Shown in pieces: positions 2,346 to 51,595 of a stretch of 55,345 bases of DNA (positions are counted from its first letter, which is position 1; every line of letters starts with the position of its first letter). The DNA is from Arenicellales bacterium. GTDB lineage: Bacteria; Pseudomonadota; Gammaproteobacteria; Arenicellales; JAOTWM01. The stretch spans positions 1-55,345 of the forward strand of contig CAXMMZ010000129.1 in assembly GCA_964194565.1 (NCBI GenBank), read 5' to 3'. Position numbers and translations under genes: made by a program. Under the pieces are notes generated by a model. It saw only the letters and a list, made by a program, of their open reading frames with translations. It was not told the DNA's origin and ran no database searches.

Positions 2346-2353
2346 AGCTATGC

Positions 2354-2383
2354 AGGTCGGCGCGAAGCGTTCGCACCCGACCT
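2354..2383. other. Intergenic stem-loop between phaB and phaR (possible mRNA-stability or REP-like hairpin)
   Basis: AGGTCGG-CGCGAA-GCG-TTCGCA-CCCGACCT; no U-tract. Confidence 0.4.
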
Positions 2384-2390
2384 CGGTACT

Positions 2391-3113: not shown

Positions 3114-3157
3114 AATTATTTTCTCCTAAAATTGTCGTATAGCTCCGTCGCATAAAT

Positions 3158-4339: not shown

Positions 4340-4385
4340 TTGACCTGCCTCTTAGTCCTTGCCAGGATAGGGACGATACGCCGGA

Positions 4386-4404
4386 ATTGTTGCAATGCAA
4401 CAAT
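4386..4404. promoter_or_regulatory. Palindrome in the divergent phaA/phaE promoter region; putative PhaR operator
   Basis: ATTGTTGCA-A-TGCAACAAT, perfect 9-bp arms containing TGCAATGCA. Confidence 0.6.
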
Positions 4405-4470
4405 ACACATTGTTACCCTGCCGATCAAGCGATCGATCGCAGCACCGTTAATCGTACCCAACCCAAAAAA

Positions 4471-16735: not shown

Positions 16736-16786
16736 TTAGCCCAATTTTCCATGCAGTCCAAACCCTTCGTGAAATATCCAGGTTAG
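16736..16786 (+). mobile_element. MITE family A minimal relic (51 bp, essentially two ends)
   Basis: Right end CCCTTCGTGAAATATCCAGGTTAG matches the family A TIR; left end TTAGCCC... is degenerate; TTAG at both ends. Confidence 0.6.
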
Positions 16787-17952: not shown

Positions 17953-17959
17953 CGGTAGC

Positions 17960-20479
17960 TTATTCCTCGCGCAATGCGAGCGCGGGCTGGACGCCGGCTC
18001 CGCGTAGCGCCGGATACACTGCCGCCAACAACGCCACCGCAATTGCGAGCAGCACCGTTTGCGCGATCACTTCTGGGGCGATACTCATTTCGATACTCCA
18101 TCCGAAGGAACGGCGGTTGATGACTCGGACCAGTACCCACGCCAGCAGCATACCTATCGGTATCGAGAGCACCGCCGCAACCGCTCCCATGATGCCGGTT
18201 TCGATGGCGATTAGGCGAAACAATTGAGCCGGAGTCATTCCCACCACCCGTAACAATGCGAATTCTTTACTGCGTTCGAGCTGGATCGACATCAATGCCG
18301 CCAGTATACCCACCGCCGCTACGATCAACGCGAGCGCGCGCAATACATTAGTGACGGAGAAGGTGCGATCGAATACGCGTAACGACGCGTCGCGCAGCTG
18401 TTGCGCGGAGCGAACACGCAATGACTTCGGCACTGATGGCCAGCCGCGGATCGTATCGATAACCGAGTCTGCCGCAACGCCAGGACTCAAGTACAAAGTG
18501 ACGGAAGTCAACGCCGGGTCCTGCCAATGTTCGAGGTAGGTTTGCCGGTGCATCGCCACCACACCGCCGTCCGCCGCATAATCGAAATACACACCGACCA
18601 CGGTAAAGTCCCGCTCGCCCCGGCCGGTACGCAACGCGATGCTATCGCCGGCACCAATTCGATGGCGATAGGCGTAGGGTTCCGAAACAATCACAGAATC
18701 TGTACGCTGAAATTCCGGCCAAACCGCACTACTATCGCGCCCGGTGAACTCGAAACGAGCAAACTCGGTGCGGCCGATGTCGATCGCGAATAACTCAACC
18801 CGCGCGCCTTCCGATTCGATCGACGCCCAACGTCCTAGCGCCGCGGACGTGACGCCGGGCAACGCGGTTAACTGTTGTACCAAGTCCGGATCGAGTCGAC
18901 GGCTGGGACCACCGGACGCCGCAACGTACACATCCGCTAGCAAGCGCGCCGTTAACCAATCGTTCACACTATCGCGAAAACTCGCGATCATCACACCGAC
19001 TCCGATGGCGGCGGCGCTGGCCACGGTCAATGCCGCAACCGCCATACCGGTGCGGCTCAACGCGGCCACCAGACCACGTACCGCCAATCGACCCGGCAGA
19101 CCGAACAATGCACCGATCCCGTACCGTGCCAAGTCAAGCAACCACACCATGAGCTGCGGCGTCATCACCGCGTAACCGATCACTAGAAAAAACAACCCGG
19201 CGAATCCCATCACTAAGCTGCGTGGTGCAATGCTTAGCAACACTCCCCCTACTGCCATAAGTACCAACCCCAATTTCACTGCAATTCGTGATCCCCGATG
19301 GGTCTGACGCTCGATAACGGATCTGCGCAGCGCGCTCGCAGGTGCAGTGCGGGTCGCCTCCCAAGCTGGGATACACGCCACCACAATCGTTGCAAGGATT
19401 CCGGCCCCGGCGGCCTTGGCGACAGTCAGCAATGGTACCGGCAATTCGGCGACATCGATGCTGAAGTACAGATCACTGATCGTGCGACTGATGAGCTCCA
19501 CTAGACCATTCGCCAACGCGATACCAGCAACGATGCCGAAGCCGGTGGCGATGATCCCAATCAATCCGGCTTCGGTAATGATTGTGGTAAATATCTGCAC
19601 GCGGCTGACCCCTAGCGTACACAGCACGCCAAGCTGCACTCGACGTCGAATCACGGAAAACGTGACAGCGTTATAAATCAGAAACAACCCGATCAACAGC
19701 GCCAACAAACTTAATGCTGTAAGGTTGATTTCGAACGCCCGGGTCATTTCACGCTGGGCATTTCCGGCGGACGCCGCGGTGACGATCTCCACCGCAGACG
19801 GCAATGCGGCACGAATCTCATCCAGTGCGCTCGCATCGGCTGCGATGACGTCGATGTAGGAAATACGGTTTTCCATTCCCAATAGAATTTGCGCAGTGGC
19901 AATATCCACCACCAACAATGACGCCACAATCGTACGTTGGATGTCATCATTGGGCTGCAATATTCCGACAACAGTAAGGTTGGCGCGCGTATCTCCTGCT
20001 GCAATCGGTAACGTATCGCCGACCCCAATACCGAAACGGGACGCCGTGTTTGGCGCAATAAGTACGGCGTTGCGAGTCGCCAGCAATGACGTCGAAACGG
20101 ATTCCGCGGGACCGGTTTGAGTGAATGTACGAAATGCACGTTCCGCGAACACATCAATACCGAGCAATCGAAAATGCGCGTCGCCGGCTCGTTGCGACTC
20201 CACCTCCCCAATGACCACCGGCGCGATATTGCGGATACCGGCTTCAACCCGAAGCCGCGTATATAGATTTTCATCCACACCGTTCGGGCCGGCGACAAGC
20301 CGGTGCGTCGTGCGGCCATTTATAATTTCATTAGCCGCTAAAAAACTTCGCTGCGCCGCCGTATTGGCGATGTCGACGGCAACGATTACTGCCACCCCCA
20401 GCGCCACACCGAGTATCGACAACGCTGCGAGCCATCGCTGCCGTAGCACATATCGAACGCTGGAACGAAATAGCAGCAC
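17960..20479 (-). CDS. FtsX/MacB-type fused ABC permease (AttF/AttG-like)
   Basis: Two MacB-like periplasmic + FtsX repeats; INRRSFGW motif; start reassigned to GTG 20479 because the upstream 37 codons are almost entirely MITE-derived. Confidence 0.88.
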   Translation of the reverse strand: MLLFRSSVRYVLRQRWLAALSILGVALGVAVIVAVDIANTAAQRSFLAANEIINGRTTHRLVAGPNGVDENLYTRLRVEAGIRNIAPVVIGEVESQRAGDAHFRLLGIDVFAERAFRTFTQTGPAESVSTSLLATRNAVLIAPNTASRFGIGVGDTLPIAAGDTRANLTVVGILQPNDDIQRTIVASLLVVDIATAQILLGMENRISYIDVIAADASALDEIRAALPSAVEIVTAASAGNAQREMTRAFEINLTALSLLALLIGLFLIYNAVTFSVIRRRVQLGVLCTLGVSRVQIFTTIITEAGLIGIIATGFGIVAGIALANGLVELISRTISDLYFSIDVAELPVPLLTVAKAAGAGILATIVVACIPAWEATRTAPASALRRSVIERQTHRGSRIAVKLGLVLMAVGGVLLSIAPRSLVMGFAGLFFLVIGYAVMTPQLMVWLLDLARYGIGALFGLPGRLAVRGLVAALSRTGMAVAALTVASAAAIGVGVMIASFRDSVNDWLTARLLADVYVAASGGPSRRLDPDLVQQLTALPGVTSAALGRWASIESEGARVELFAIDIGRTEFARFEFTGRDSSAVWPEFQRTDSVIVSEPYAYRHRIGAGDSIALRTGRGERDFTVVGVYFDYAADGGVVAMHRQTYLEHWQDPALTSVTLYLSPGVAADSVIDTIRGWPSVPKSLRVRSAQQLRDASLRVFDRTFSVTNVLRALALIVAAVGILAALMSIQLERSKEFALLRVVGMTPAQLFRLIAIETGIMGAVAAVLSIPIGMLLAWVLVRVINRRSFGWSIEMSIAPEVIAQTVLLAIAVALLAAVYPALRGAGVQPALALREE

Positions 20480-20484
20480 GATGC

Positions 20485-20689
20485 TTAGCCCGGATACTTC
20501 ACGAAGAGTTCGGATTGCAGGGGAAATCAGGCGAAGGGCGGTTAGAGGCGAAGCCGAAAACCACCGATCGGTGGCGTTCGAACATGACAAACTGCGCGCA
20601 GCCCCCGTACCTTAAAACACAGGGCAATCGGATCAAATATTGAGAAGATTTATGGTCCATGGCACGCCTTCGTGAAATATCGCGGTTAG
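20485..20689 (+). mobile_element. MITE family A, internally deleted copy (205 bp)
   Basis: TTAGCCCGGATACTTCACGAAG ... GCCTTCGTGAAATATCGCGGTTAG; shares GACAAACTG/CCCCGTACC/TCAAATATTGAGAAGATT blocks with 1523-1775; TTAG repeated at both ends. Confidence 0.82.
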
Positions 20690-20690
20690 C

Positions 20691-21386
20691 TTAGCGCGAC
20701 ACCAAACGGCATTGATCGATGGTGTACACGCTATCGGCACAAGCTATCGCTTCGTCACTGTGGGTTGCGATAAGCAATGCTGTCCGGTACTCGCGGGTCA
20801 GGGATGACATCAGCGCCAGTACGTTTTGTGCAGTCTCTGTATCGAGATTACCGGTGGGCTCGTCGGCTATGACCAACGCCGGACGGTGGATCAGCGCACG
20901 CGCAATCGCCACGCGTTGTTGTTCGCCACCAGACAAGATATCGGGATAGCTGCCGGCACGGTCCGCTAACCCGATTCGTTGCAACAATACGGCGATTCGG
21001 CGATCGCTGCTCGCGCTGTCGACGCCATTAAGCTGTAGCGGTAGGCGCAGGTTTTCATCCACAGTCAGGGTCGTAATTAGATTGAAAAACTGAAATACGA
21101 AACCAATATGACGGCGCCGGAAGCGCGTTCGTTGCGCCTCGGACATCGTGACTAACGGTTCGCCGTCGATACATATTCGGCCCGAGTCAGGCACATCGAT
21201 GCCGGCCAATAGGTTCAGCAACGTCGATTTGCCCGATCCGCTGCGGCCCACCACGGCGATAATCTCGCCGCGCCCAAACACGAGTTCCGCATCTTTAAAG
21301 ATGCGGCGTTCACGTTCGCCCTCGCGATAGGCTTTGTTAAGCCCGTGGATGCGAACCAATTCGTGGCGGCCCGACGCGCTACCCAT
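20691..21386 (-). CDS. ABC transporter ATP-binding protein (LolD/MacB-like, AttE-like)
   Basis: GRSGSGKS, GFVFQFFNL, LSGGEQQRVAIARA, ADEPTGNLD. Confidence 0.93.
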   Translation of the reverse strand: MGSASGRHELVRIHGLNKAYREGERERRIFKDAELVFGRGEIIAVVGRSGSGKSTLLNLLAGIDVPDSGRICIDGEPLVTMSEAQRTRFRRRHIGFVFQFFNLITTLTVDENLRLPLQLNGVDSASSDRRIAVLLQRIGLADRAGSYPDILSGGEQQRVAIARALIHRPALVIADEPTGNLDTETAQNVLALMSSLTREYRTALLIATHSDEAIACADSVYTIDQCRLVSR

Positions 21387-26921: not shown

Positions 26922-27591
26922 GCTCGTAGCAACGAATCTAGTCAAACGTGTTATCAGCCCGGAGGGTAGTTTAACAATTCTCGATGGGATCTCTGTAACG
27001 GTCGGGCGCGGTGAATCGGTAGCTGTCGTAGGCGCGTCGGGATCGGGCAAATCCACCCTGCTAGCGTTACTGGCCGGATTAGACACCGCGAGCTCCGGAC
27101 GGGTGAGCCTCGACGGCGTTGAACTTACCGACCAAGATGAAGACGGGCGCGCGCAGCTGCGAGCCGGCCGGGTCGGTTTCGTATTTCAAAACTTTCAGTT
27201 GCTGGCGAGCTTGACCGCGATCGAAAACGTGATGTTGCCGTTGGAGTTGGGGTCATCATACAGCAGCGGCCGGACATTGGAGCGCGCGGCGGAGGCACTG
27301 GAGCGGGTCGAGCTTACCCAACGGCGGCGTCACTATCCCTCACAATTGTCCGGTGGTGAACAACAACGCGTCGCGATCGCACGCGCGTTTGTGACTGACC
27401 CCGTGATCCTGTTTGCCGACGAACCCACCGGTAACCTCGATACCGCAACCGGGAAACGAGTCATGGATTTGCTGTTCGATTTAAATCGCGAAAAAAATAC
27501 CACGTTGTTATTGGTGACCCACGATAGCGATCTCGCAGCGCGCTGTGATCGCCGTCTGGAATTAGTAGCGGGAAGGTTGTGCGACTCCTAA
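26920..27591 (+). CDS. ybbA: ABC ATP-binding protein YbbA
   Basis: GASGSGKS, LSGGEQQRVA, ADEPTGNLD; divergent from tesA. Confidence 0.88.
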   Translation: MLVATNLVKRVISPEGSLTILDGISVTVGRGESVAVVGASGSGKSTLLALLAGLDTASSGRVSLDGVELTDQDEDGRAQLRAGRVGFVFQNFQLLASLTAIENVMLPLELGSSYSSGRTLERAAEALERVELTQRRRHYPSQLSGGEQQRVAIARAFVTDPVILFADEPTGNLDTATGKRVMDLLFDLNREKNTTLLLVTHDSDLAARCDRRLELVAGRLCDS

Positions 27592-30107
27592 CCCGAATAG
27601 TCCATGAACGGTTCGGGCTTAGCGGTATTCGCTATGCAATAGTGATGCTACGCCGCGAGTGGCGCGCCGGCGATCTGCGCATCGTAGCCCTGGCGCTGGT
27701 ACTGGCCGTGGCATGCGCAACCTCGGTGGCGGCGTTCACTGACCGGTTACAACAGGCGCTGCAACGTCAAGGCGGCGAATTACTCGCGGCCGACCTAGTC
27801 GTGCGCTCGTCATTTCCGACGGGGCCGGCATGGCGCGAAAAAGCGCTAAGCTCTGGCTTGGCGGTAGCGCGTACCACCTCGATGCGCAGCGTCGTGGTGG
27901 CGGGGCGGCGCACCCACCTGGTCGAAATCAAAGCGGTTGGCAGTGGATATCCGTTGCGCGGTGAATTACGCGTCGCGACGCGGGACCGCCACCACGATAT
28001 CGCTATTGATTCCATCCCTCCGCCGGGGCACGTTTGGATCGACCCGCAATTATCGTCATTGCTGGATATCGCTGTCGGCGACACGATCGAAGTCGGTGCA
28101 GCCGCATTCCAGGTCACACGCATTCTTACCTTTGAACCGGACCGCGGAGGCGCTGCGTTCGTGATCGCCCCGCGGTTGTTAATGCACGAATCGGATCTCG
28201 ACAAAACTCAGTTGCTGCAACCCGGAAGCCTTGCCACCTATCGGCTGCTTTTGGCCGGCACACCACAACCGCTCTCAGAGTTCCGACGCTGGTTGGAACC
28301 CCAACTGACCAGCGGCGTGTCGATTCGCGATGTCACCGATGCCGGCCCGCGCTTTCGATTAGCCTTGGAGCGTGCCCAACGATTCTTGAGCCTGGCGGCA
28401 TTGGTAGGTGTGTTGTTGGCCGGTGTAGCAATCGCGCAGGGAGCGTGGCACTACACCGAGCGAAACCTCGACCACGCGGCTATGCTGCGTTGCCTCGGTT
28501 GGCGACAGCGTGACGTGCTATCGGTTTATGTCTATCAGCAACTGCTGCTGGGTCTCGGTGCCGGCAGCTTCGGAGCGATGCTGGGATATGCCGGGCAACA
28601 GGTATTGGTGCATCTGTTACCGGCGTTGACCCAGGGCGATCTGCCGGCGCCATCGTGGCGGCCGGCGCTGGCGGGTATTGCTGTGGGGATAGTCACGCTC
28701 AGTGGTTTTTCATTACCGGTGGTGGCGCGCCTAAAGCAGGTACCGCCGCTTCGAGTATTGCGACGGGATTTGGGACGGTTACCGCCACAGCTGTACAGCT
28801 TATATGGGTTCGGCGCAGCGATGTTTCTCGGGCTCACCATATTGCTCGCGCGCGACTGGCGAATCGTGGCCTATGTGCTTGGCGGCACCACGCTCACGGT
28901 GGCTGGCCTGGCCGGCGCGAGCTACGTGCTGTTACGGTTGCTCGGGCGGTTGAAACCGCGGGCCGGCTCCGGCGTGCGCCACGGCTTATTGAGCCTAGTG
29001 CGCCGCACACGCGCCGCAACGATACAGGCCGTCGCGCTCGGGGTCGGGATCATGGCGATCCTACTGCTTACGGTTGTGCGCGGCGATCTGCTGCGGAATT
29101 GGGAAAATCGATTGCCGGCCGGTACCCCCAACCATTTTATCGTCAACATTCAACCCGGGCAGATTGCCGCGGTACGGGAATTTCTCGATCACGTTCAGGG
29201 CCGGAACGCGGCGTTTAAACCGCTAGTACGAGCACGCTTGATGTCGATTAATGGCAAAGTCGCACGGGCCGCAGATTTCGATGACCCGTTTGCACAACGG
29301 ATGATGCAGCGCGCGGCGAACCTGTCCTGGGTCGATGATCTCGGTGACGATAACCGCATAGTCGCGGGGCGCTGGTCCGACCCCAACGGTGACCGCATGG
29401 TGGTATCGGTGGAGCAGGAATACGCCGCAGCACTCGGTATGCAGATCGGCGACATTCTGACGTACCGGGTGGGCGACCGCGACGTGGCGTTGCGCATCGC
29501 GAGCCTGCGCGCGGTGTCCTGGGATTCATTTAGGCCGAATTTTTTTCTATTGACGCCGGCCGATGTGTTGGGTCTCGAGTCGGCCACCTTTATCGGCAGC
29601 GTGTTTGTACCGCCCGCTAACGATCAATACGTAACTCGCTTAGTTGAACAATTTCCGAACCTCACCGACATCGATATCGGTGCCATACTCGATCAGGTGC
29701 GGCGCCTATTGCAAAGACTCAATCACGCCATGCAATTTGTGTTTTTATTTACCGTTGGATCTGGGCTGCTGGTATTGTACGCATCGATTTATTCGAGCCA
29801 ACGCGAACGCCGCGCCGAATTGGGTCTACTCCGAGCATTGGGCGCGGCGCGGCGCTACCTATGGGCGTCATTGGCTAGCGAGTTTATCGTGTTAGGCGCT
29901 CTGGCTGGATCGATCGGTGCTCTGGCTGCGTCCTTGACCGGACTGTTGATCGCGCGTGGGCTGTTGAATCTAGACTACCAATTTAGCTTAACCGTATGGT
30001 TGATGGGAATATCGGTCGGCGCGCTGCTGGTGACGGCGGTTGGGCTCGCGGGCACACATCGTTTGATCGCCACACCACCCTGGCACACGCTGCGCGGCGC
30101 CGCCTAA
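27579..30107 (+). CDS. ybbP: Fused FtsX-type ABC permease YbbP
   Basis: REWRAG.L, KAV..GYPLRG, PN.F..NIQ, R.V.WDSF.PNFF. Confidence 0.9.
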   Translation: MRLLTRIVHERFGLSGIRYAIVMLRREWRAGDLRIVALALVLAVACATSVAAFTDRLQQALQRQGGELLAADLVVRSSFPTGPAWREKALSSGLAVARTTSMRSVVVAGRRTHLVEIKAVGSGYPLRGELRVATRDRHHDIAIDSIPPPGHVWIDPQLSSLLDIAVGDTIEVGAAAFQVTRILTFEPDRGGAAFVIAPRLLMHESDLDKTQLLQPGSLATYRLLLAGTPQPLSEFRRWLEPQLTSGVSIRDVTDAGPRFRLALERAQRFLSLAALVGVLLAGVAIAQGAWHYTERNLDHAAMLRCLGWRQRDVLSVYVYQQLLLGLGAGSFGAMLGYAGQQVLVHLLPALTQGDLPAPSWRPALAGIAVGIVTLSGFSLPVVARLKQVPPLRVLRRDLGRLPPQLYSLYGFGAAMFLGLTILLARDWRIVAYVLGGTTLTVAGLAGASYVLLRLLGRLKPRAGSGVRHGLLSLVRRTRAATIQAVALGVGIMAILLLTVVRGDLLRNWENRLPAGTPNHFIVNIQPGQIAAVREFLDHVQGRNAAFKPLVRARLMSINGKVARAADFDDPFAQRMMQRAANLSWVDDLGDDNRIVAGRWSDPNGDRMVVSVEQEYAAALGMQIGDILTYRVGDRDVALRIASLRAVSWDSFRPNFFLLTPADVLGLESATFIGSVFVPPANDQYVTRLVEQFPNLTDIDIGAILDQVRRLLQRLNHAMQFVFLFTVGSGLLVLYASIYSSQRERRAELGLLRALGAARRYLWASLASEFIVLGALAGSIGALAASLTGLLIARGLLNLDYQFSLTVWLMGISVGALLVTAVGLAGTHRLIATPPWHTLRGAA

Positions 30108-30434: not shown

Positions 30435-31226
30435 TTGATGCTCAACCCGTGCCCAACGTCGCTCGGCGGTCGATTCGTTACGAGCCGCCTAAGCCGTGGC
30501 CGATACCGATTAGTAGTGTTGGCGCTCAGTGCGATGTTGACTGTCAGCTGCGCGACACTCGATAAACCCGGTGACTCGGCTGGGATGTCGGGTAATGAGA
30601 ACGACCCGTTCGAAAATTTTAATCGCGGTGTTTGGGGTTTTAACGAAAAACTCGACAAGGTAGCGTTAAAGCCACTAGCTCGGGGTTATTCAAAGGCCAT
30701 ACCACGCCCGATGCGCAATCGTGTAACGAACTTTTTTGGCAATCTCGGCGAACCTAAGACCATCGTGAACAATTTGTTGCAGGGAAAGGTTGGATTAGCG
30801 TATCAGGATGCGTGGCGGTTTTTAATTAATACGACGATCGGTGTGGTGGGTTTATTCGATGTCGCGGGGCGCGCGGGACTTGTGAAACACAATGAGGACT
30901 TCGGTCAAACTTTGGCGGTTTGGGGTGTAAAGGACGGACCGTACCTCGTATTGCCGCTATTTGGACCGAGCAACGTCCGCGACGGTATCGGCCGGATCCC
31001 CGATGCGTATTTGAACCCAATAAACCAAATAGACGACAGCAGCGCCCGAATCGTATTGCGCGCGTTGAGTGTTATCGATGCACGCGCCCGACTGTTGCGG
31101 GTATCGCGGATACTCGCGATGCAGCTAGACCCGTATCTGTTTCTCCGTGAAAGCTATCGGCAACAGCGACGCCAATTGATTTACGACGGCGCGTATGATG
31201 GTGCACTGGAGCCGGGTATTGAATAG
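30435..31226 (+). CDS. mlaA: MlaA/VacJ family lipoprotein
   Basis: Lipobox LTVSC, DPFE.FNR, RF..N.T.G..GLFD, EDFGQTL, GPYLVLP.FGPS..RD; true start probably downstream of 30435. Confidence 0.93.
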   Translation: MMLNPCPTSLGGRFVTSRLSRGRYRLVVLALSAMLTVSCATLDKPGDSAGMSGNENDPFENFNRGVWGFNEKLDKVALKPLARGYSKAIPRPMRNRVTNFFGNLGEPKTIVNNLLQGKVGLAYQDAWRFLINTTIGVVGLFDVAGRAGLVKHNEDFGQTLAVWGVKDGPYLVLPLFGPSNVRDGIGRIPDAYLNPINQIDDSSARIVLRALSVIDARARLLRVSRILAMQLDPYLFLRESYRQQRRQLIYDGAYDGALEPGIE

Positions 31227-41006: not shown

Positions 41007-42356
41007 ATGATGCCTAACCCGACGCCGAACGGTGTCGATACCATCGTGGCTGTCGCCACTCCCCCTGGCCGCGGCGGAATCGGCATCGTACGGATTTCCG
41101 GGCCAGCCAGTGTAGCGATGGCGCGAGCCATTGTCGGTAACGAACCTACCCCACGACATGCCCACTACGGCCCCTTTCATGGCCCCGACGGCGCGCCGCT
41201 CGACAACGGGGTCGCAATCTTTTTCGCGGCCCCCGACTCCTATACCGGAGAAGACGTCCTCGAGCTACACGGCCACGGTAGCCCAGTCGTTCTCGATCTG
41301 TTGGTGTCGAGTATCGTTGGCCGTGGCGCGCGCCTCGCGCGTCCTGGCGAGTTCACCGAACGCGCATTCCTGAATGACAAGATGGATCTCGTCCAGGCTG
41401 AGGCCGTCGCGGATTTGATCAACAGCGGTTCCGAACAAGCGGCGCGCGCCGCGTTGCGCTCGCTTGAGGGAGGACTGTCGTCGCCGCTGCACACGGTGAG
41501 TGCGGAACTCGCGGAGCTGCGGGTGCTGATGGAAGCGGCTATCGATTTTCCCGAAGAAGAATTGGACGTAATTGCGCGCCACGATTTACGCGCGCGCGCG
41601 GCCGAGTTGGGCGCGTCGCTCAAGGCGTTACTGGCCAACGCGAGCCAAGGTCAGATTTTGCGGGATGGGCTGCGAGTGGTTTTGGCAGGCGCGCCGAACG
41701 CCGGCAAGTCGAGCCTGCTGAACGCGCTACTCCAAGCGGATCGCGCTATCGTTAACGCCGTACCCGGAACCACGCGCGATCTACTTGAACACACGATGCA
41801 CATCGACGGAATGCCGGTGCAGGTCATCGATACGGCGGGCTTGCGAGATAGCGTCGATGCCGTTGAGGCCGAAGGTATGCGCCGCGCCCGGCAAGCGATG
41901 GAACAAGCGGACTGCGTGCTGCTGGTGGTCGACGATACCACTTTGACCCCGCTCGAGACGTTGCGCCAGCAAATACCGGCCACAGTAATGACGGTCGTCG
42001 TCTATAACAAGATAGATATCAGTGGCCGCGCCCCTGGCGCTGGCGGCGACCACATCGCACTGTCGGCGCTGACGTCGCGGGGCGTGGCTGAGCTTCGCTT
42101 GCACCTTAAGCAATGCGCCGGTTACCAAGGTGGCGACGCATCGCTATACAGTGCACGCCGGCGCCATATCGACGCTATCCAACGCGCCACCGCACACATT
42201 GAGGACGCGTTGGGACAGCTCGGTGCCGTCGCTGCGGCGGAACTGGCCGCCGAGGAACTACGCCTAGCCCAACACGAACTGGGGCAAATCACCGGTGAAG
42301 TCAGCAGCGACGACTTGTTGGGACAAATATTCTCAACGTTTTGTATCGGAAAATAG
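41007..42356 (+). CDS. mnmE: tRNA modification GTPase MnmE
   Basis: DTI.A.ATP.G.GG, GAPNAGKSS, GTTRD, DTAG, NKID, FCIGK. Confidence 0.98.
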   Translation: MMPNPTPNGVDTIVAVATPPGRGGIGIVRISGPASVAMARAIVGNEPTPRHAHYGPFHGPDGAPLDNGVAIFFAAPDSYTGEDVLELHGHGSPVVLDLLVSSIVGRGARLARPGEFTERAFLNDKMDLVQAEAVADLINSGSEQAARAALRSLEGGLSSPLHTVSAELAELRVLMEAAIDFPEEELDVIARHDLRARAAELGASLKALLANASQGQILRDGLRVVLAGAPNAGKSSLLNALLQADRAIVNAVPGTTRDLLEHTMHIDGMPVQVIDTAGLRDSVDAVEAEGMRRARQAMEQADCVLLVVDDTTLTPLETLRQQIPATVMTVVVYNKIDISGRAPGAGGDHIALSALTSRGVAELRLHLKQCAGYQGGDASLYSARRRHIDAIQRATAHIEDALGQLGAVAAAELAAEELRLAQHELGQITGEVSSDDLLGQIFSTFCIGK

Positions 42357-42491
42357 CGCTGCGTCGCAATCTTGCGATGCGTCGCTGGCATCGTATTTGA
42401 ATTCTGTTAAAGTCCTGCACTGTCGCGTAGCTCGACCCGGCACCGACCACGGCGCCGCCCACCAAAGCATATCGAGAGGACAGCACAAGCC

Positions 42492-43427
42492 ATGAGCCTA
42501 CTATCACCGGGGCGCATCCGCAGCCGCCACATTTTGCTACGCATGATTATCGTCGGCGTAATAGGTCTCGCAGTATTGTTCTGGCAGCGCGACTTTTTAG
42601 TTCAAGTCTACGTCGAAAATCAGATCACCCGTGTCGGCTGGGCTATAAACGGTATGATCATGGTTTTGTTTATCGCGGGTATGATACGTTTGGTGTTGTT
42701 GTTCTTGCGTTACGGCCGTGAGGAGGAAGCGCTAAATCGATTTGTTGTCAATTTGCAGCGCGCCCTCGATCCGGCACAGGGCGTTGCCACTGACACTATC
42801 ATCGGCCATCGACATAGGACTTTGGTGGATCTGCACGCCAAACGTGCCGCCATCAATCACAGCGCCTTAGCCGCGACACTGTTGGGTGCTGAATCGAGCC
42901 AGCTTAGTTTCCCGAGATTCATCAATAATATACTGATCCTGACTGGCGTTTTGGGCACTATCGTATCATTGTCGATCGCGTTATTGGGTGCGTCCGATAT
43001 GATCGGTGGCGCGTCGGAGATTGGCGGGTTGGGGAAAATTATCCACGGCATGTCGACCGCATTGTCGACGACCATGACGGCGATCGTTACGTATTTGGTG
43101 TTCGGCTACTTTTACCTGAAGCTTAACGATACGTTGACGTATCTAATGAGCCGAATCGAGCACGTCTCCGCAACCGTGTTGGTGCCGCGCTACCAAACCC
43201 AGGAAGAGTCGATTGTTCAAGACTACACATACCTGATCCGCACCGCCGTAGCGGTTACCGAGCGCTTCGACGAAGCCCAACAAAAATTCACCACATTGGT
43301 GGAGAATCTCGAGCAGACCCTCAATACCTACCGCGAAGAAATGCGGCACAGTAACGATAGTGTTACTGAAATCCGCCGCTTGCTAAGAGCCGGCTTCCGC
43401 TTACCGGATGGAGGCGCCGATCAATGA
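42492..43427 (+). CDS. MotA/TolQ/ExbB-like ion-channel subunit (4 TM)
   Basis: Two N-terminal TMs, LILTGVLGTIVSL and GMSTALSTT pore-helix motifs, helical C-terminal tail. Confidence 0.78.
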   Translation: MSLLSPGRIRSRHILLRMIIVGVIGLAVLFWQRDFLVQVYVENQITRVGWAINGMIMVLFIAGMIRLVLLFLRYGREEEALNRFVVNLQRALDPAQGVATDTIIGHRHRTLVDLHAKRAAINHSALAATLLGAESSQLSFPRFINNILILTGVLGTIVSLSIALLGASDMIGGASEIGGLGKIIHGMSTALSTTMTAIVTYLVFGYFYLKLNDTLTYLMSRIEHVSATVLVPRYQTQEESIVQDYTYLIRTAVAVTERFDEAQQKFTTLVENLEQTLNTYREEMRHSNDSVTEIRRLLRAGFRLPDGGADQ

Positions 43428-44557
43428 GTTCGACGGAAGGATTCGTCGATCTCAGGGCGCATAACCTGTCGCAGAGCAGCTATAACGACGACAGCGTATG
43501 GCCATCGTTTACCGACATCATGACCGTCGTGGTGATGATATTCTTGATGGCGTTGGTGGTGATTTTGCTGCGCAACGTCGAGCTCGTGCAACAACTTCGC
43601 GCAACGATGGAAGCCGAGCGCGCGGTTGCCCAACAGAAGGAAACCTTGGCATCCCGTATCGGCAAGCTGGAACGCTATATCTCCGAGTTGCGCCTGAACC
43701 TGATGCAGACCGAAGAGGATAAACGTCAAGCGGCCGTCACCATCACCGCTCGCGAAGGGACGATCACTGCGCTACAGGCCGATATCGGTGCCCTTGAGGC
43801 ACTGCGCCAACGCTTAATCGACGAAAACAGCAAACTCGCCGAACAACGCTCCCAGCTTGGTGAAGATTTGCAATCTGAGCGTGATGCGAAACAAGCGCTG
43901 CAAGCGCAACAGTTAGCGCTGAGCAGCGAATTGGATGTGGCGAGAGAGCATAGTGAATCCCTCGCTACCGATAACATCGCGTTGTGGGAGCAAATTGATA
44001 CGCTGCGACGCGAGGGCGAGACGCTGCGGGACGAGAAACGAATATTGGAGGACGATAGATCCGCGTTGCTGGAGGAGACGGCCAAACTCGTTAGCGAAAC
44101 GGAAATATTGCAGGATATACAAGAGCAACTTCAGGTCGACCGATCCGCGCTCGTAGAGCGCCTCGAGCTCAGCGAACAAGAGTTCAGCAAGATCGAACAG
44201 TCTTATGCCGCGCGTGGCGAGAAATTATCGACACTGGACACGGAGTTTTCGGAATTAAAAACCAAATATGATCGCCTCATCCGCCCGGCGCGAAGCGCGG
44301 ACGGTCGCTATGTCGTGGAAATTCGTTATGTGAAACGCGGCGCTGTATTTTTATTGGAGGTGCGCGAACCCGATAATGTTGAATTCCGCGCCGTGAGTCG
44401 CGCCGAACTCGATCGTCGCCTCGCGGTTTTGCAGCAACGCGATCCGGCAAGGCTCTATACCAAGATCGTGATCCCGGAGGACAGTGGCCTGTCCTACAAC
44501 GAAGCCTGGAATTTCACATTCGATATTTTGCAACGTTACGACTATTACTATCGGTAG
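43424..44557 (+). CDS. MotB-like single-TM protein with a long coiled coil and no OmpA domain
   Basis: VWPSFTDIMTVVVMIFL TM with Asp31; ~230 aa heptad-rich region; ATGA overlap with the upstream gene. Confidence 0.72.
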   Translation: MSSTEGFVDLRAHNLSQSSYNDDSVWPSFTDIMTVVVMIFLMALVVILLRNVELVQQLRATMEAERAVAQQKETLASRIGKLERYISELRLNLMQTEEDKRQAAVTITAREGTITALQADIGALEALRQRLIDENSKLAEQRSQLGEDLQSERDAKQALQAQQLALSSELDVAREHSESLATDNIALWEQIDTLRREGETLRDEKRILEDDRSALLEETAKLVSETEILQDIQEQLQVDRSALVERLELSEQEFSKIEQSYAARGEKLSTLDTEFSELKTKYDRLIRPARSADGRYVVEIRYVKRGAVFLLEVREPDNVEFRAVSRAELDRRLAVLQQRDPARLYTKIVIPEDSGLSYNEAWNFTFDILQRYDYYYR

Positions 44558-44649
44558 TAGGATCGTCCGGACAGTCCAATGTCTACGCCCAAAACCGGGC
44601 GGTTCTGGCTCTTAGATCCATTGGCGCGGAATTGGCCCGGGGATTTGGG

Positions 44650-46674
44650 TTAAGCATCGGCACTTCGGGCCGGTCGGAATTGTCGAATTTGACGGCGCAA
44701 TGCGGGTAGTGCTGCTAAACGATTTCGATAGCGCACATCCACGTAGGTCGAGGTGATGCGCCGTACCTCGCTGTCCAAGTCCGGGCGCTGGCGTGAGACA
44801 CGTTGCGCAAAGTCCCACGGCCCCTCGTAGCCGGCACGCTCAAGGCCGAGTCGGGCCAATTTCGCACAGAATCGACGATACCAGGCCACTACAGGGTCCC
44901 GATGCCGGCGCGGTTGCAGCATCACGGCCGCCATTATCAATAACAGCAGTGCGACCACGAGCACCAAGGTTCCGGTAAGCACAATCCAAGCCGGGGCCTT
45001 TATGCCAAACGCGCGTAGCCATTCGCGTTGCTGATCGACGTCGTAATCTAATACCAACTGGTTCCAGGTATTGTTGAGGAAGTCCAAATAGAACCCCGTT
45101 TCGCGAAAGCCTCGTTGCCACCAACTCGACTGCGCCGCCGCCAGTGCGTCGTCCACGTCTAGCACGCCGAAAGCTTGACCGTTTTGCGCCATACGGTTCA
45201 GCACTGAAAATCCCAACTCAACACGTTCCGGCGCCACGGCGGCGGTCGGGTCAGCACGTTGCCAACCGCGCCCGGGTAACCATACCTCGGCCCAGGCGTG
45301 CGCATCGTATCCGCGAACTACCATGTAGTTCCCGGCCGAATTCCATTCGCCGCCTTGATAGCCGACCACCAGGCGGCTCGGCACGTCGGCCATACGCATC
45401 AGCGTGACGAACGACGTTGCGAAGTATTCACAATAGCCGCGGCGTGTTTCAAACAAAAACTCATCGACTGGATTGTTGCCGATATCGCCGGGACTCAAGG
45501 TATAAAAAAACGGCTCCTCGCGAAAATAATTTAAGCTCAATTGCACCAACGCTGCCGGGGTTTGTGCGGTAGCACGCCAATCGTCAACGAGTTGCTGCAT
45601 GCGTGGCGTCGGTGCTTTGGCCAGATGGAGTCCCCAGAAGCGCTGGTCGCGGCTCAATGCGCCGGTTCGGTAGTCCAGATGGGATCGCACTTGATAACGA
45701 AAACGCTTGCGAATCTTACGCTTGGCCTCGACGACATAACCTGCACGCCGACGCGCCATCGCGGGCGTAACGGTAGGCAACTCTAATGCCACCAACCAGC
45801 GTTGGTTATGGGGTTCCAACGTGACATTGTAATTAACCTCGCGACCCCGCTCGCGGATCGCCTCAGGTACCGGGTCATCGTCAAGGTCGTTGCGCCGAGT
45901 CCAGACGCGACCGTCGGTGTCTTCCAATACCAGCGCCCGCCAATACAGATCGCGGTTAGCGGGCGGCTCGCCATCGAATTCGACGCGAAACGCAACACGG
46001 TCATTGGAGATCAATTGGTGCACCGATCCCATCTGCAGGCGCTCATTCAGGCCGGTCGTGCCATAGGCATCGACCGGGACACCCCACAAACTGCCTTGGA
46101 TGCGTGGGAACAACAAGTACACAATGCACATCAGAGGTATCGATTTAATGAGCAGCCCGCCGGCCAAACGCATACCGCGGGTCAACGGGGTGCCGAGCGC
46201 TTGGTTCAGCTGCACGAGGCACAATGTGGTCAGTGCCACGACCAGTAAGGCATAAGCGCCGACCCATAGTGATTGTGAGTACAGAAACGCTGCGAGCGTC
46301 AAAAAATACAGTAGAAAAACCGTGAGTAAATAATCCCGTAGGCGCCGCAACTCCAATGCTTTCAAGCCGGTCAAACCGAATAACATCGCCACCCCCGGGT
46401 CGCGGCCCAACAACGATTGATGGTGTATATAGACCATCACCACCATGGCGATCGCCAGTAACATACGCACCAACGAACCCGGAGATCGCCAGCCCAAATT
46501 GTCGATCAGATAGCGCCACACGATTAAGCACAGCGCGGCTAATACCATCCACAGGGGAACGTGGACGGCATGCAACGAAAGCACTGCGAGCGTACAGATT
46601 AGGACCAGACTTATCGCTTCGCGAGATGGCATATGGTCCGGTGGCGCCGGATGGCGAAAACCCGGCAGCCTCAT
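44650..46674 (-). CDS. tgpA: TgpA-like transglutaminase (DUF3488 + TGase + DUF4129)
   Basis: Multi-TM N-terminus, LYWR..V, RGYCEYFA, V.GYQGG, DAHAW.EVW, DPT. Confidence 0.88.
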   Translation of the reverse strand: MRLPGFRHPAPPDHMPSREAISLVLICTLAVLSLHAVHVPLWMVLAALCLIVWRYLIDNLGWRSPGSLVRMLLAIAMVVMVYIHHQSLLGRDPGVAMLFGLTGLKALELRRLRDYLLTVFLLYFLTLAAFLYSQSLWVGAYALLVVALTTLCLVQLNQALGTPLTRGMRLAGGLLIKSIPLMCIVYLLFPRIQGSLWGVPVDAYGTTGLNERLQMGSVHQLISNDRVAFRVEFDGEPPANRDLYWRALVLEDTDGRVWTRRNDLDDDPVPEAIRERGREVNYNVTLEPHNQRWLVALELPTVTPAMARRRAGYVVEAKRKIRKRFRYQVRSHLDYRTGALSRDQRFWGLHLAKAPTPRMQQLVDDWRATAQTPAALVQLSLNYFREEPFFYTLSPGDIGNNPVDEFLFETRRGYCEYFATSFVTLMRMADVPSRLVVGYQGGEWNSAGNYMVVRGYDAHAWAEVWLPGRGWQRADPTAAVAPERVELGFSVLNRMAQNGQAFGVLDVDDALAAAQSSWWQRGFRETGFYLDFLNNTWNQLVLDYDVDQQREWLRAFGIKAPAWIVLTGTLVLVVALLLLIMAAVMLQPRRHRDPVVAWYRRFCAKLARLGLERAGYEGPWDFAQRVSRQRPDLDSEVRRITSTYVDVRYRNRLAALPALRRQIRQFRPARSADA

Positions 46675-47591
46675 CGTTCCGACCACAGCGCGAGCGCTTT
46701 CAAACACCGGTGTCGATGGTGTTTACCGTGGTCGGTGCCGATTACCGATCCCGGTAGCCGCAGCCCGTAATTCAGTCCGTTTGATTCGGCGTCTACCACC
46801 CAGCGCGCCAGTTGGCTCAGGCGTGGTTCTGGCTCGAGCTCAGCTAACCGATCCCAGTCCAGCCATACCGTGCCGCCGCCTCCGCCAAATCGCTTCGTCA
46901 ACAGTTCTTGACTGCGCGCCGACGCTTTCCAGTGCACATGCCGCGGTGGGTCACTGGGGTGATACGCGCGCAGACCGATAAAGTCGTCGCCTTCGGCATG
47001 GGCGCCGTCGCTTTGGGTCGTACCGCCGGTGGTGGCGGACATTAACGTGCGGCTACCGTGCGGCCGCGGATACACGAGGCACCGTGCGTTGACGCGGAGC
47101 GATTTTGACCAAGTGTAGAGCAGCCCAACCGGGAACGCGCTCGACACGGCAATCGGGTCTAGGTCCACGTAGCCGCGGTGCCTCGTGCGTTGCTGAAGTT
47201 CAACACTGGTGTTTTCCATAGCGCCGAATTCGAGCCGTTCAGCGCGCTCGCCGCAATGAATCCAGACCCCGGTGCGCGGTTGCGGCGTTTCATTCGCCGC
47301 ATGCAGGTTGAACTTGGCCGATTCCCCAGCAAACACGGGCGCTTGGGCGTGGGCGGTAATTTGGATTCCAGCGACATTGCGATGGGTATATAGCATCGAA
47401 GTAATCGCCATGGCCGCCAACAGGAACGTAAACAGATACGCGAGGCCGTTGTGGTAGTTAAGGGCCATGAGCAGCATCGCCACTAGTGCCATGCAGAAAT
47501 ACAACCCGTAGCGGGTTGGCAACATGTAAAGCTGCCGACGGTCTAAGGTAATGCGCTCGACAGCGGCAGCGCGAACGGTTTTTCCGGCCAT
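46671..47591 (-). CDS. DUF58 domain protein
   Basis: PTR.G, FP.GL, VYP.P, GLR.Y...D....VHWKASAR. Confidence 0.9.
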   Translation of the reverse strand: MAGKTVRAAAVERITLDRRQLYMLPTRYGLYFCMALVAMLLMALNYHNGLAYLFTFLLAAMAITSMLYTHRNVAGIQITAHAQAPVFAGESAKFNLHAANETPQPRTGVWIHCGERAERLEFGAMENTSVELQQRTRHRGYVDLDPIAVSSAFPVGLLYTWSKSLRVNARCLVYPRPHGSRTLMSATTGGTTQSDGAHAEGDDFIGLRAYHPSDPPRHVHWKASARSQELLTKRFGGGGGTVWLDWDRLAELEPEPRLSQLARWVVDAESNGLNYGLRLPGSVIGTDHGKHHRHRCLKALALWSER

Positions 47592-47644
47592 GAATTACTC
47601 AGCGGTTCTCTTAATTGAGCGGCGTGAAAACGACGGAATAACAC

Positions 47645-48613
47645 CTAAGGAATCGGCACCGAACGAATCAACCGATCCACTAAACCGAGCCCGGCGTCGG
47701 TCATGGTGTCTTCGGTGTATTGCAAGCGGTGTCCAAATACGGCGGGCGCAACGGCTTGGACATCCTCTGGTAATACCGTATCACGGTCTTCCAGAAGTGC
47801 CCAGGCCCGGGCCGCGTGGCTAAGCGCGAGGCCGGCGCGCGGCGATAGGCCGTGGACCAACCATGGCGCACCGCGGGTCGCGTGTAGAAGCGCTTGTATG
47901 TAATCCAACAGCGCCGGACTTAATCGGACCATGTCAGCTTTGCGTTGCACGCGACGTAACGTCGAGACCTCGAGCAGCGGATCGACGGAGCTCAACAGCG
48001 TGCGCCGATCGGCGCCTTCCAAGAGTTTACGCTCGGCATCGTGGTCGGGATAACCAATTCCGATCCGCATCAGAAAACGGTCGAGCTGCGATTCCGGCAA
48101 CGGAAAGGTGCCGATCTGATGTTGGGGATTCTGGGTACCGATCACAAAGAACGGCTCCGGCAACGGCAATGTTACTCCTTCCGTGCTGACTTGACGTTCC
48201 TGCATGGCCTCCAGCAGTGCGCTTTGGGCCTTTGGCGTTGCGCGGTTGATTTCGTCGGCCAACACCAACGACGAAAAGATAGGCCCGCGATGAAAGCGGA
48301 ATGTATTGCGTTCGGCATCGAAGATTGACACCCCGATAATGTCGGCCGGTAGCAGATCACTGGTAAACTGAATACGCTTAAAATCCAACCCCAATACTGC
48401 CGCCAGCGTGTGCGCCAAGGTGGTTTTGCCGACCCCTGGAATGTCCTCGATGAGCAAGTGACCGCGCGCGATCAAGCAGCAAAGCGCGAGACGCACCGAG
48501 TGGTCTTTGCCAAGGATAATTTCATTGATTCGATCGATCGCGGTGCGAAGCACTTTGGCGGTGGGAACCGTTACCGTTTCGGCGGCGACTTCGTGTTGAG
48601 ATTTTGAGTTCAT
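47645..48613 (-). CDS. MoxR-family AAA ATPase
   Basis: GHLLIED.PG.GKT, RIQFTSDLLPAD, DEINRA.PK.QSALLEAM, LPESQLDRF. Confidence 0.95.
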   Translation of the reverse strand: MNSKSQHEVAAETVTVPTAKVLRTAIDRINEIILGKDHSVRLALCCLIARGHLLIEDIPGVGKTTLAHTLAAVLGLDFKRIQFTSDLLPADIIGVSIFDAERNTFRFHRGPIFSSLVLADEINRATPKAQSALLEAMQERQVSTEGVTLPLPEPFFVIGTQNPQHQIGTFPLPESQLDRFLMRIGIGYPDHDAERKLLEGADRRTLLSSVDPLLEVSTLRRVQRKADMVRLSPALLDYIQALLHATRGAPWLVHGLSPRAGLALSHAARAWALLEDRDTVLPEDVQAVAPAVFGHRLQYTEDTMTDAGLGLVDRLIRSVPIP

Positions 48614-48920
48614 TAATGTCTGGACACGCAAGGTGATAGTTATATTGCTTATAGTCTATACGCGAATTACCGTAGCGGGTTCCGTTACCGTCGGTTACGC
48701 TTCGCGTGTGACCGAATGTCGCCGCCGCGCCGTGCTCCTACTGCCGATGGTTTCCTTTGGCGTCGTGCCGTATTAATATCGCCGACCCGCGTTAGAACAA
48801 CTGAGTATAGACGATGAGTACGGACTCGATACCCGGCGCTGCGCCGAGACAACCGATCGGTTGCGCACACATAGATGCGCTGGGCTGGGCCGCGCAACGG
48901 GCTACATCGCAAGTATTGCT

Positions 48921-50839: not shown

Positions 50840-51595
50840 ATGTATGCACTCGACGTGGCGTGTGCCAGCGATACGGGGCAGGTACGGGAACATAACGAAG
50901 ACAGCACTGCTGCGGAGAGCAGCTTGGGTTTGTACATCGTGGCCGATGGTATGGGCGGCTATCGGGCCGGCGAGGTCGCGAGTGCATTTGCGGTCACCAC
51001 GATGGTGCGGTCTTTGCGCCGCCAACTGCATGAGTTGGCTGGCCGCACCACCGATATGCGTCGCGCAATAAAGGCTGCACTACTTCGCGCTAACGATCAT
51101 ATATTTCGCTCCGCGCAATCGATCGACGAATACCGCGGTATGGGCACGACGATCGCCAGTTTGTTGTTTCACGAAAGCGACGTTTGCATCGCCCATGTCG
51201 GTGACTGCCGGGCCTACCGGTTGCGGGAGGGCGAACTGCAGCAGCTTACAACGGATCACACTGTGCACCAGGAATTGATCGACCGCGGTTTGTGCACACC
51301 TGAGGAGGCCGCGGAGGTGGTCAGCCGAAGTGTCGTGACTCGGGCATTGGGTATCGACGCCACGGTCAACGTCGATGTGTCCGAACAATCGATCCAGGCC
51401 GGCGATATGTACCTACTGTGCTCGGATGGATTGACCGATATGATCGATAATGAAACGATACGTGCGACGTTGCTGAGCAATGAATCGTTGGACGCCGCGG
51501 CGTCGTCACTGGTCGAGTTGGCCAACAATCGTGGTGGACAGGACAACGTCTCGGTGGTTTTGGTGAGAACCGCGGCACAAGTCGCACCGGGTTAA
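50840..51595 (+). CDS. PP2C-family Ser/Thr protein phosphatase (Stp1/PrpC-like)
   Basis: D.G..R..NED, VADGMGG, MGTT, HVGD.R.Y, LLCSDGL, GG.DN. Confidence 0.94.
   Translation: MYALDVACASDTGQVREHNEDSTAAESSLGLYIVADGMGGYRAGEVASAFAVTTMVRSLRRQLHELAGRTTDMRRAIKAALLRANDHIFRSAQSIDEYRGMGTTIASLLFHESDVCIAHVGDCRAYRLREGELQQLTTDHTVHQELIDRGLCTPEEAAEVVSRSVVTRALGIDATVNVDVSEQSIQAGDMYLLCSDGLTDMIDNETIRATLLSNESLDAAASSLVELANNRGGQDNVSVVLVRTAAQVAPG

Follow-up and report, generated by a model that had tools for sequence, protein, structure and literature searches.

A two-gene candidate membrane motor with a coiled-coil axle subunit in an Arenicellales bacterium and its relatives

The window analyzed here is the whole 55,345-nt stretch of contig CAXMMZ010000129.1 (assembly GCA_964194565.1) from an Arenicellales bacterium. 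Two adjacent plus-strand genes between mnmE and mnmG, designated A and B, probably encode a self-contained ion-driven inner-membrane motor of the MotAB/ExbBD/TolQR/ZorAB superfamily, in which B carries its own periplasmic arm. We adopted this reading because A is of the ring type, B has a transmembrane helix of the ZorB/MotB type with a conserved aspartate, and the two genes are strictly paired. Ion-driven motors of 5:2 stoichiometry provide the power for flagella and gliding, for nutrient import and type IX secretion, for outer-membrane upkeep and for phage defence.

The two open reading frames (ORFs) lie exactly where an earlier reading of the DNA letters alone (the sequence-only reading) had placed them. 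The translational coupling through an ATGA overlap that it had claimed agreed with the ORF coordinates.

Pairing and membrane segments of A and B

Relatives were collected by a word-seeded search (E ≤ 0.001, among 8000 candidates scored per search), which found 1806 for B and 2742 for A. These were annotated as 'hypothetical' or as 'MotA/TolQ/ExbB proton channel family protein', or bore automatic SMC/MotB labels. A locus scan using one genome per species gave 455 pattern matches, 416 of which were confirmed as A-B loci in public genomes, and 80 loci were kept for analysis. In all 80 the B N-terminus started 0–182 nt past the A match. The C-terminal head of B was found in 71 of them, and the other nine had only 219–1082 nt of contig left.

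The named records came from Arenicellales, Candidatus Thioglobus (SUP05), Acidiferrobacteraceae, Sedimenticola, Candidatus Thiodiazotropha, bivalve symbionts and Chromatiales, which together accounted for most of the loci with an organism name. Further records were one Poriferihabitaceae metagenome-assembled genome (MAG) and one MAG labelled Zetaproteobacteria. Many of these groups are sulfur oxidisers that store sulfur outside the cytoplasm. Two MAGs (isolates SP340 and ALOHA_A2.5_35) each had two loci, L010 with L011 and L014 with L041. L010 and L011 were near-identical, each with an 841-aa B. These pairs could be paralogues or duplicates produced by binning or assembly.

Kyte-Doolittle hydropathy gave three strongly hydrophobic segments in A (residues 13–31, 54–72 and 147–165). 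The sequence-only reading had proposed four transmembrane helices. The fourth, a polar helix at about residues 187–210, fell under the hydropathy threshold and was called a membrane helix only through its match to the Pfam family MotA_ExbB (PF01618). The GVLGT and ALSTT motifs of that reading were present, as TGVLGT at residues 151–156 and ALSTT at residues 190–194. Across 23 A homologues, G152, G155, T156, A190, L191, T193, T194 and G301-F302-R303-L304 were invariant. We take the conserved threonines to be the counterparts of ExbB Thr148 and Thr181.

Profile positions 44–126 of MotA_ExbB aligned to residues 136–223 of A. The match had E ≤ 0.01 in 22 of the 23 homologues (best 1.8e-5), and a precomputed PF01618 domain was recorded on only 3 of 120 listed A homologues. 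There were four Lys/Arg and no Asp/Glu before helix 1, and nine Lys/Arg in the short cytoplasmic loop of about 70 residues (73–143). Judged from the sequence, this charge distribution fits an orientation with both termini in the cytoplasm, as in MotA.

When the AlphaFold2 model of A was compared with the PDB by Foldseek, all 50 listed matches were ExbB, TolQ, PomA or ZorA chains (probability 0.92–1.00, target-normalized template-modelling score (TMt) 0.36–0.67). The best fold matches were ExbB and TolQ, and PomA 8brd was among them. A search of the PDB sequences with an A profile gave nothing significant, the best matches being coiled-coil noise in the tail. From the model we concluded that A is predicted to adopt the fold of a ring subunit of the motor superfamily, with a MotA-like four-helix layout, a short loop and a helical tail of about 100 residues. 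This was in line with the MotA/ExbB/TolQ/ZorA fold class assigned to it earlier.

B had one hydrophobic segment (residues 31–49, score 2.94), preceded by WPSFTD ending at Asp31, just as expected from the single N-terminal helix with a W-x-S-F-x-D motif described from the letters. The conservation of Asp31, on which that proposal depended, was complete. All 80 loci kept it, 76 as WPSFTD, one as WPSFAD and three as WPAFTD. In a profile of the first 95 residues of B (78 sequences), L10, R11, W26, P27, F29, D31, M33, F40, N51 and L54 were invariant, and F7 and D9 were present in at least 90%. The motif F-x-DLR was found in 77 of the 80 loci.

Searching the PDB sequences with this profile recovered solved ZorB chains (8vvn_B, E 9.1e-7; 8vvi_A, 6.6e-5; 8qyd_F, 2.1e-4), in support of the earlier view that the helix of B is ZorB/MotB-like. 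Both the direction of the helix and the place of Asp31, at its N-terminal end, agreed with the aligned ZorB chains. ExbD chains reached E 0.45–3.9 only. A designed membrane protein (E 5.6e-5) was set aside as an evidently compositional match. PADLOC ZorB3 matched B with E 2e-7. Among 25 B homologues, the NCBIfam model PRK09040 matched 24 and ZorB1 matched 22, all far below the curated cut-offs; on B itself, ZorB1 scored 17.9 bits against a cut-off of 400, and the PRK09039/PRK09040-type models 25.8 against 305. All 120 listed matches in a search with the N-terminal region belonged to the same A-B-type B family, and none of them had an OmpA domain.

The GFRL near the end of A (43392–43403) resembles the GF-x-DLR near the start of B (43439–43456), and both would be cytoplasmic by homology. 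The two motifs may touch, or they may have a site in common. One A homologue (P0186) had a second, GFRE-like copy within an insertion in the tail.

The rod and the head of B

Residues 56–278 of B were proline-free and rich in Glu, Leu, Ala, Gln and Arg. Their heptad score in the best register was 0.68, compared with 0.526 ± 0.037 for shuffled sequences, and 0 of 200 shuffles reached that value. The heptad-rich stretch of about 230 residues noted earlier was thus recovered as about 225 proline-free residues.

The rod varied in length. B measured 291–1030 aa, with a median of 385, in the 70 loci that had a complete gene in a single frame. Eight of the other ten genes were cut by the contig end and two seemed split. 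Since the constant parts of B amount to about 150 residues, the rod would range from about 140 to 880 residues, or about 21–130 nm at 0.15 nm per residue. Nine of 71 B genes contained tandem arrays, all with periods divisible by 21 nt, the length of one heptad. The array in the 1030-aa B (L080:10166-11066) had periods of 462 and 231 nt and was in frame. Another (in L034) consisted of three exact 105-nt copies at bases 566–883 of the gene, and the remaining seven genes had a 21-nt period. The rod grows by tandem duplications of whole heptads that keep the register, which accounts for the range of B lengths.

The two split genes were in closely related MAG loci (L017:6405-7858 and L019:8465-10625), in which the N-terminal part of B and the head were not in one open frame. 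This was either a frameshift or an assembly error.

A model of the last 112 residues of B, built with 71 sequences, was confident (predicted local distance difference test score (pLDDT) 91.2). It showed the end of the rod followed by a head domain of about 90 residues, which corresponded to the globular end postulated from the letters. Foldseek gave no significant E-value for the head. The only high-probability match with a reasonable template-modelling score was Escherichia coli TolR 5by4 (probability 0.96, TMt 0.54, query-normalized score (TMq) 0.51, root-mean-square deviation 3.0 Å over 79 columns). The ExbD/TolR-like head that had been suggested therefore gained some structural support, but of a weak kind, and no support in sequence.

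A head profile searched with HMMER against 1.84 billion representatives (clusters at 50% identity) gave 381 matches at E ≤ 0.001, of which 354 were at E ≤ 1e-10. Among the best 150 of the 381, the domain lay at the C-terminal end or within about 30 residues of it, in proteins of the size of the B family; none of these 150 showed a different architecture or a connection to ExbD/TolR. ESM Atlas searches with residues 275–377, and with residues 290–377 against named clusters, reached a score of 0.86 at best, with a cluster that carries no name, and none of the named matches was usable. By these profile matches the head would appear to be specific to the A-B family.

The sequence-only reading had also found no OmpA-like peptidoglycan-binding motif in B, and the searches bore this out. 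B itself had no Pfam match to OmpA (none at E ≤ 1 for the window protein), MotB_plug, ExbD or vWA. None of the four was among the 25 listed of the 92 Pfam families matched by 25 B homologues. No OmpA-type structure appeared among the 50 listed Foldseek matches of the head.

Predicted mechanism and its alternatives

From the solved relatives, five A subunits would surround two B helices. H+ (or Na+) would pass via Asp31, which would face Thr156 and Thr194 of A, and the ion flow would turn A relative to B. The N-terminus of B would be cytoplasmic, as suggested by the direction of its alignment to ZorB and the charge pattern of A, and this would put the rod and head in the periplasm. The two B chains would form a parallel coiled coil. 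With less certainty, the TolR-like head may dock on peptidoglycan or an envelope partner, and B may itself transmit force, or serve as a tether, across the periplasm, one chain doing the work of ExbD plus TonB or of TolR plus TolA. We favour this role for B, and it is the least certain part of the scheme. A complex prediction of full-length A with residues 1–90 of B at 1:1 scored 0.00 in two runs made without controls, and it weighs neither way.

Several results weighed against the motor with a periplasmic arm. The MotA_ExbB match of A scored 19.6 bits, under the gathering threshold of 22.9. The model of A was only moderately confident (pLDDT 73.8, with a helix at residues 176–302), and its best Foldseek E-value was 2.8e-3, with none at 1e-3 or better. 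The TolR match of the head ranked eighth, with E 0.18. No link between the head and ExbD/TolR was found by sequence or profile search, and the head profile against the PDB sequences gave no ExbD/TolR and nothing significant (best E 0.14, thioesterase I). The N-terminal flank of the B helix was net negative (one Lys/Arg, four Asp/Glu), with two Lys/Arg in the C-terminal flank, so that the positive-inside rule alone would not support a cytoplasmic N-terminus.

The length of the rod was a further difficulty. The sequence-only reading had a rod long enough to cross the periplasm, and this failed across the family. The spread of B lengths argues against a rod fixed as a ruler of the periplasm width. 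The long forms (up to 130 nm) could not be straight struts, because the periplasm is about 25–30 nm wide. The spread would fit better with a leash, or with a rod that lies obliquely or folds back.

The work may be delivered by the periplasmic head or by the cytoplasmic tail of A. In the second case the motor would be the same with its output reversed: the head would anchor B to the wall, like the peptidoglycan-binding domains of MotB and ZorB, and the ring of A would act in the cytoplasm or membrane through its tail, which would be a shortened counterpart of the ZorA tail or of the face that MotA turns to the rotor. The tail is helical and ends in the invariant GFRL, it carried insertions in 2 of the 23 homologues, and PADLOC ZorA2 matched weakly at residues 139–288 (E 2e-4). 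The nearest solved relative of B is ZorB, and the invariant GF-x-DLR at the N-terminus of B would sit beside the tail. A figure legend in PMC11946911 describes a contact of ZorB's N-terminus with the tail of ZorA in Zorya. On the other hand, the A tail has about 100 residues, compared with a ZorA tail of about 70 nm (PMC11946911). No conserved cytoplasmic partner gene was found nearby in the 80 loci, and a plain wall anchor needs no rod of 140–880 residues. We consider a reversed output rather unlikely.

The motor with a periplasmic arm can also be taken further, to an undescribed trans-envelope machine. Here the two genes would form a motor driven by the proton-motive force, with the dimeric B as a rotating or pulling shaft whose length each lineage sets by whole-heptad duplications, and whose tip makes contact with the wall, with the outer membrane or with some structure in the periplasm. 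We regard this extension as doubtful. In one bold version the motor would manage the periplasmic compartment or its contents, unlike the work of Tol and Ton. The taxonomy of the carriers is only a lead in this direction, confounded by shared descent and resting on the general physiology of these groups.

Instead of generating rotary force, the pair might work as a gated ion channel, or as a sensor of envelope stress or of mechanical force whose rod signals the condition of the wall or outer membrane and opens the channel. The conserved R50, N51, L54 and L58 of B, in the segment after the transmembrane helix, are located like the plugs of MotB-type proteins, and no partner genes were found in the 80 loci. 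All the solved relatives recovered, however, are described by their depositors or authors as motor or stator units. The data do not separate sensor from motor, and we judged a sensor or channel improbable.

Genomic context and comparison with known systems

Context was counted from crude ORF calls in the 80 loci. mnmE was just upstream of the pair in 31 and mnmG just downstream in 28, with either in 39 and both in 20. Another 21 loci, mostly of Sedimenticolaceae and Chromatiales, had a MOFRL/DUF4147 glycerate-kinase-like gene and a DUF455 gene upstream. The remaining 20 were in other contexts, many on short contigs. The Pfam families of the neighbours included glycerate kinase-like MOFRL, DUF455, metallophosphatase, CysS, cyclophilin, TsaB-like, DinG-like helicase and GGDEF, among others. 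No third gene was conserved beside A-B throughout the 80 loci.

A tree of A (quick method, midpoint root, support by the Shimodaira-Hasegawa-like approximate likelihood ratio test (SH-aLRT)) gathered the non-origin loci into a single 34-row group (SH-aLRT 93) that was nested within the rows of origin context. The context labels required 12 changes on this tree, compared with 35 in shuffles, and 0 of 200 shuffles were as low. Neither the 72,556 plasmid records nor the 50,697 phage records contained a tblastn match to A. Because context clustered on the tree and no plasmid or phage match was found, these results point to a chromosomal module that would be inherited mainly vertically. A defence island or mobile element was rejected from the neighbours and the absent plasmid and phage matches. 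The context results also show that the position near the origin reflects lineage history and is no evidence of function. The housekeeping role that the sequence-only reading had drawn from this position is weakly founded, with mnmE or mnmG beside the pair in only about half of the loci.

These counts also bear on an inverted topology, in which the coiled coil and head of B would be cytoplasmic, for example as an SMC-like or origin-associated membrane-tethered scaffold. The origin-proximal loci, the acidic N-terminal flank of B with its two Lys/Arg on the other side, and weak SMC matches to the rod would agree with it. The SMC matches, however, were of the unspecific kind that any coiled coil gives (39 bits, where the cut-off is 567), the location of Asp31 and the direction of the helix are those of the aligned ZorB chains, and the charges of A fit its two cytoplasmic termini. 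The 21 loci in the unrelated MOFRL/DUF455 context, and the 20 in neither context, also speak against a scaffold of the origin, and we hold this topology to be very improbable.

A minimal or degenerate Zorya-like anti-phage module deserved hardly any credence: ZorA/ZorB models and structures were the best sequence matches of A and B, but the model scores were far under the curated cut-offs, no zorC/D/E/F/G-like or other effector gene stood beside the pair in the window or the 80 loci, the pair lies among housekeeping genes at a chromosomal position that is conserved, the context labels cluster on the A tree with no plasmid or phage match, and A has no long tail and B no OmpA-type domain.

The features of the locus are collected in Table 1. 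In the window itself, the gene order was gyrB, dnaN and dnaA (minus strand), then rnpA, yidD, yidC, mnmE, A and B (plus strand), and past B a minus-strand triad, mnmG, a PP2C phosphatase gene, rsmG, parA, parB and the start of atpB. This is the chromosomal origin region. The pair does lie between mnmE and mnmG as the sequence-only reading had stated, but it does not adjoin mnmG, since three minus-strand genes intervene. Checking the window neighbours agreed with the absence of tonB/tolA, flagellar and zorC/D/E genes near A-B that it had reported.

The spacer between mnmE and A was only 135 nt and held a terminator-like hairpin, called by consensus match only. Because of this hairpin, A-B may be transcribed apart from mnmE. 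A scan of 42200–44800 for sigma-70-like promoters found 0 sites. In 14 other loci (L034:4029-4253, minus strand, and 13 more), a 75-aa ORF on the opposite strand lay between mnmE and A. It had no Pfam match and may be spurious.

Table 1. Features of the A-B locus and of the adjoining minus-strand genes (window coordinates)
Feature	Coordinates	Strand	Size	Basis or remark
Gene A, putative ring/channel subunit, ExbB/TolQ/MotA/ZorA-like fold	42492..43427	+	311 aa	ORF list
A residues 13-72, two N-terminal hydrophobic helices and conserved short loop	42528..42707	+		Hydropathy, model, alignment
A residues 144-210, putative pore-lining helix pair, GVLGT (Thr156) and ALSTT (Thr194)	42921..43121	+		Pfam, conservation
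A residues 211-311, predicted cytoplasmic helical tail, invariant GFRL (301-304) at end	43122..43424	+		Alignment, model
Gene B, putative axle subunit	43424..44557	+	377 aa	ORF list; B homologue after A in 80/80 loci
B residues 6-11, GFVDLR N-terminal motif, cytoplasmic by homology	43439..43456	+		Conservation
B residues 26-49, WPSFTD and single transmembrane helix, Asp31 putative ion-binding residue	43499..43570	+		Hydropathy, profile
B residues 50-278, conserved neck (R50, N51, L54, L58), then heptad-rich coiled coil	43571..44257	+		Heptad score, conservation
B residues 279-377, alpha/beta head, strand-strand-strand-helix-strand-helix, ends YDYYY	44258..44554	+		Model
ATGA overlap	43424..43427	+		B ATG 43424-43426 over A TGA 43425-43427
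GGAGG	43410-43414	+		10 nt before B start
Terminator-like hairpin including T-rich tail	42373..42405	+		Just past mnmE; 8-pair stem 42373-42395, then TTTGAATTCT
TgpA-like transglutaminase (TgpA_N + Transglut_core + DUF4129)	44650-46707	-		
DUF58 gene	46671-47591	-		
MoxR-type AAA ATPase	47645-48631	-		

The TgpA/DUF58/MoxR triad (44650–48631) is a convergent three-gene unit that separates B from mnmG. Of the 80 related loci, just three (L001, L002 and L022) have this insertion, while in L039 only TgpA is present. The PP2C-family phosphatase gene (50840–51595, plus strand) sits between mnmG and rsmG, within an otherwise canonical mnmG-rsmG-parA-parB run.

Three further regions of the window were recorded. 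A polyhydroxyalkanoate cluster at 1863–6314 has a PhaR-like regulator, an acetoacetyl-CoA reductase and a thiolase on the minus strand, and the PhaE-like subunit and alpha/beta-hydrolase (PhaC-like) subunit of a class III synthase on the plus strand. At 16783–21386 (minus strand), the gene of a CrtC-like lipocalin-domain protein adjoins those of a large permease of the MacB/FtsX type and of an ABC ATPase. Another FtsX/MacB permease is encoded at 27579–30107, and an MlaA lipoprotein gene lies at 30435–31226.

The sequence-only reading had held that the pair matches no characterised system, and this was supported by database models that scored below their cut-offs and by the lack of a description in the literature. 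No description of the A-B family turned up in full-text literature searches; the supplements of PMC12505986 lay outside that search, and its unnamed 'GIT' homologues could include members. This 2025 survey of MotAB homologues groups the non-flagellar relatives as 'GIT', mostly of unknown function, and its main text never uses the word 'coiled' (PMC12505986).

A-B failed the membership tests of each named system. It is not of the MotB or ZorB type, because it has no OmpA-type domain, and it is not Zorya, because A has no long tail and effector genes are missing. It also has no ExbD/TolR sequence signal, no TonB/TolA gene and no vWA domain.

MotA-MotB and PomA-PomB share with A-B a four-helix A, a B whose single helix has an Asp close to the cytoplasmic end, and a B gene directly downstream. 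They differ in that the A-B family has no OmpA-like domain on B, an A loop of about 70 residues and no flagellar genes nearby. The ExbB-ExbD-TonB and TolQ-TolR-TolA systems are similar in the fold of A, in TolR being the only high-probability match of the head, and in the idea of a motor driven by the proton-motive force with a long periplasmic arm. In A-B, however, the arm is within B itself, no TonB/TolA-like gene is nearby, A has an extra N-terminal helix and the MotA-like four-helix layout, and B has no Pfam ExbD match, its helix reaching ExbD only at E 0.45.

GldL-GldM and PorL-PorM are ion-driven motors with a small subunit that spans the periplasm, which is an analogous idea. The Pfam, PDB-profile and Foldseek searches of A-B gave no sequence or fold match to them. 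The NCBIfam entries PRK09039/PRK09040 ('peptidoglycan-binding protein', 'hypothetical protein') aligned with the N-terminus and the start of the coiled coil in 18–24 of 25 B homologues, with scores far below their cut-offs. The former name implies a peptidoglycan-binding domain, which B lacks.

The closest published concept to A-B is TPH-vWA (PMC12204202), in which a B-type pore helix with an Asp is fused to a periplasmic effector domain and the TolQ-like gene stands alone, with no separate TolR/ExbD and with function unknown (section 8 of that paper). TPH-vWA ends in a vWA domain and usually occurs as heterologous pairs, whereas A-B has a single B gene, whose product combines a coiled coil with a small head peculiar to the family.

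The A-B family is large (416 loci, hundreds of clusters at 50% identity), two genes suffice for it, and its chromosomal context is a housekeeping one that is tracked by the relatedness of A. Each newly understood 5:2 motor has revealed a new route of sending energy across the envelope. A-B would be of interest to motor specialists without being a categorical surprise. The family prompts one to ask which task a motor of this kind performs in the abundant sulfur-oxidising bacteria of the sea, and it offers a compact system in which to ask whether the B axle itself transmits torque or tension.

The comparison with ZorA-ZorB was the most informative. ZorB is the nearest solved relative of the transmembrane region of B, A matches ZorA, and each system has two adjacent genes. 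According to PMC11946911, ZorAB of Zorya is a 5:2 complex driven by the proton-motive force with one very long coiled coil, which is pentameric, cytoplasmic and part of ZorA, while ZorB ends in a peptidoglycan-binding domain. In A-B the long coil is on B, the head is not OmpA-like, the A tail has about 100 residues, and there are no effector genes. The long coil of A-B is thus on the opposite subunit from that of Zorya and, by homology, would lie on the opposite side of the membrane.

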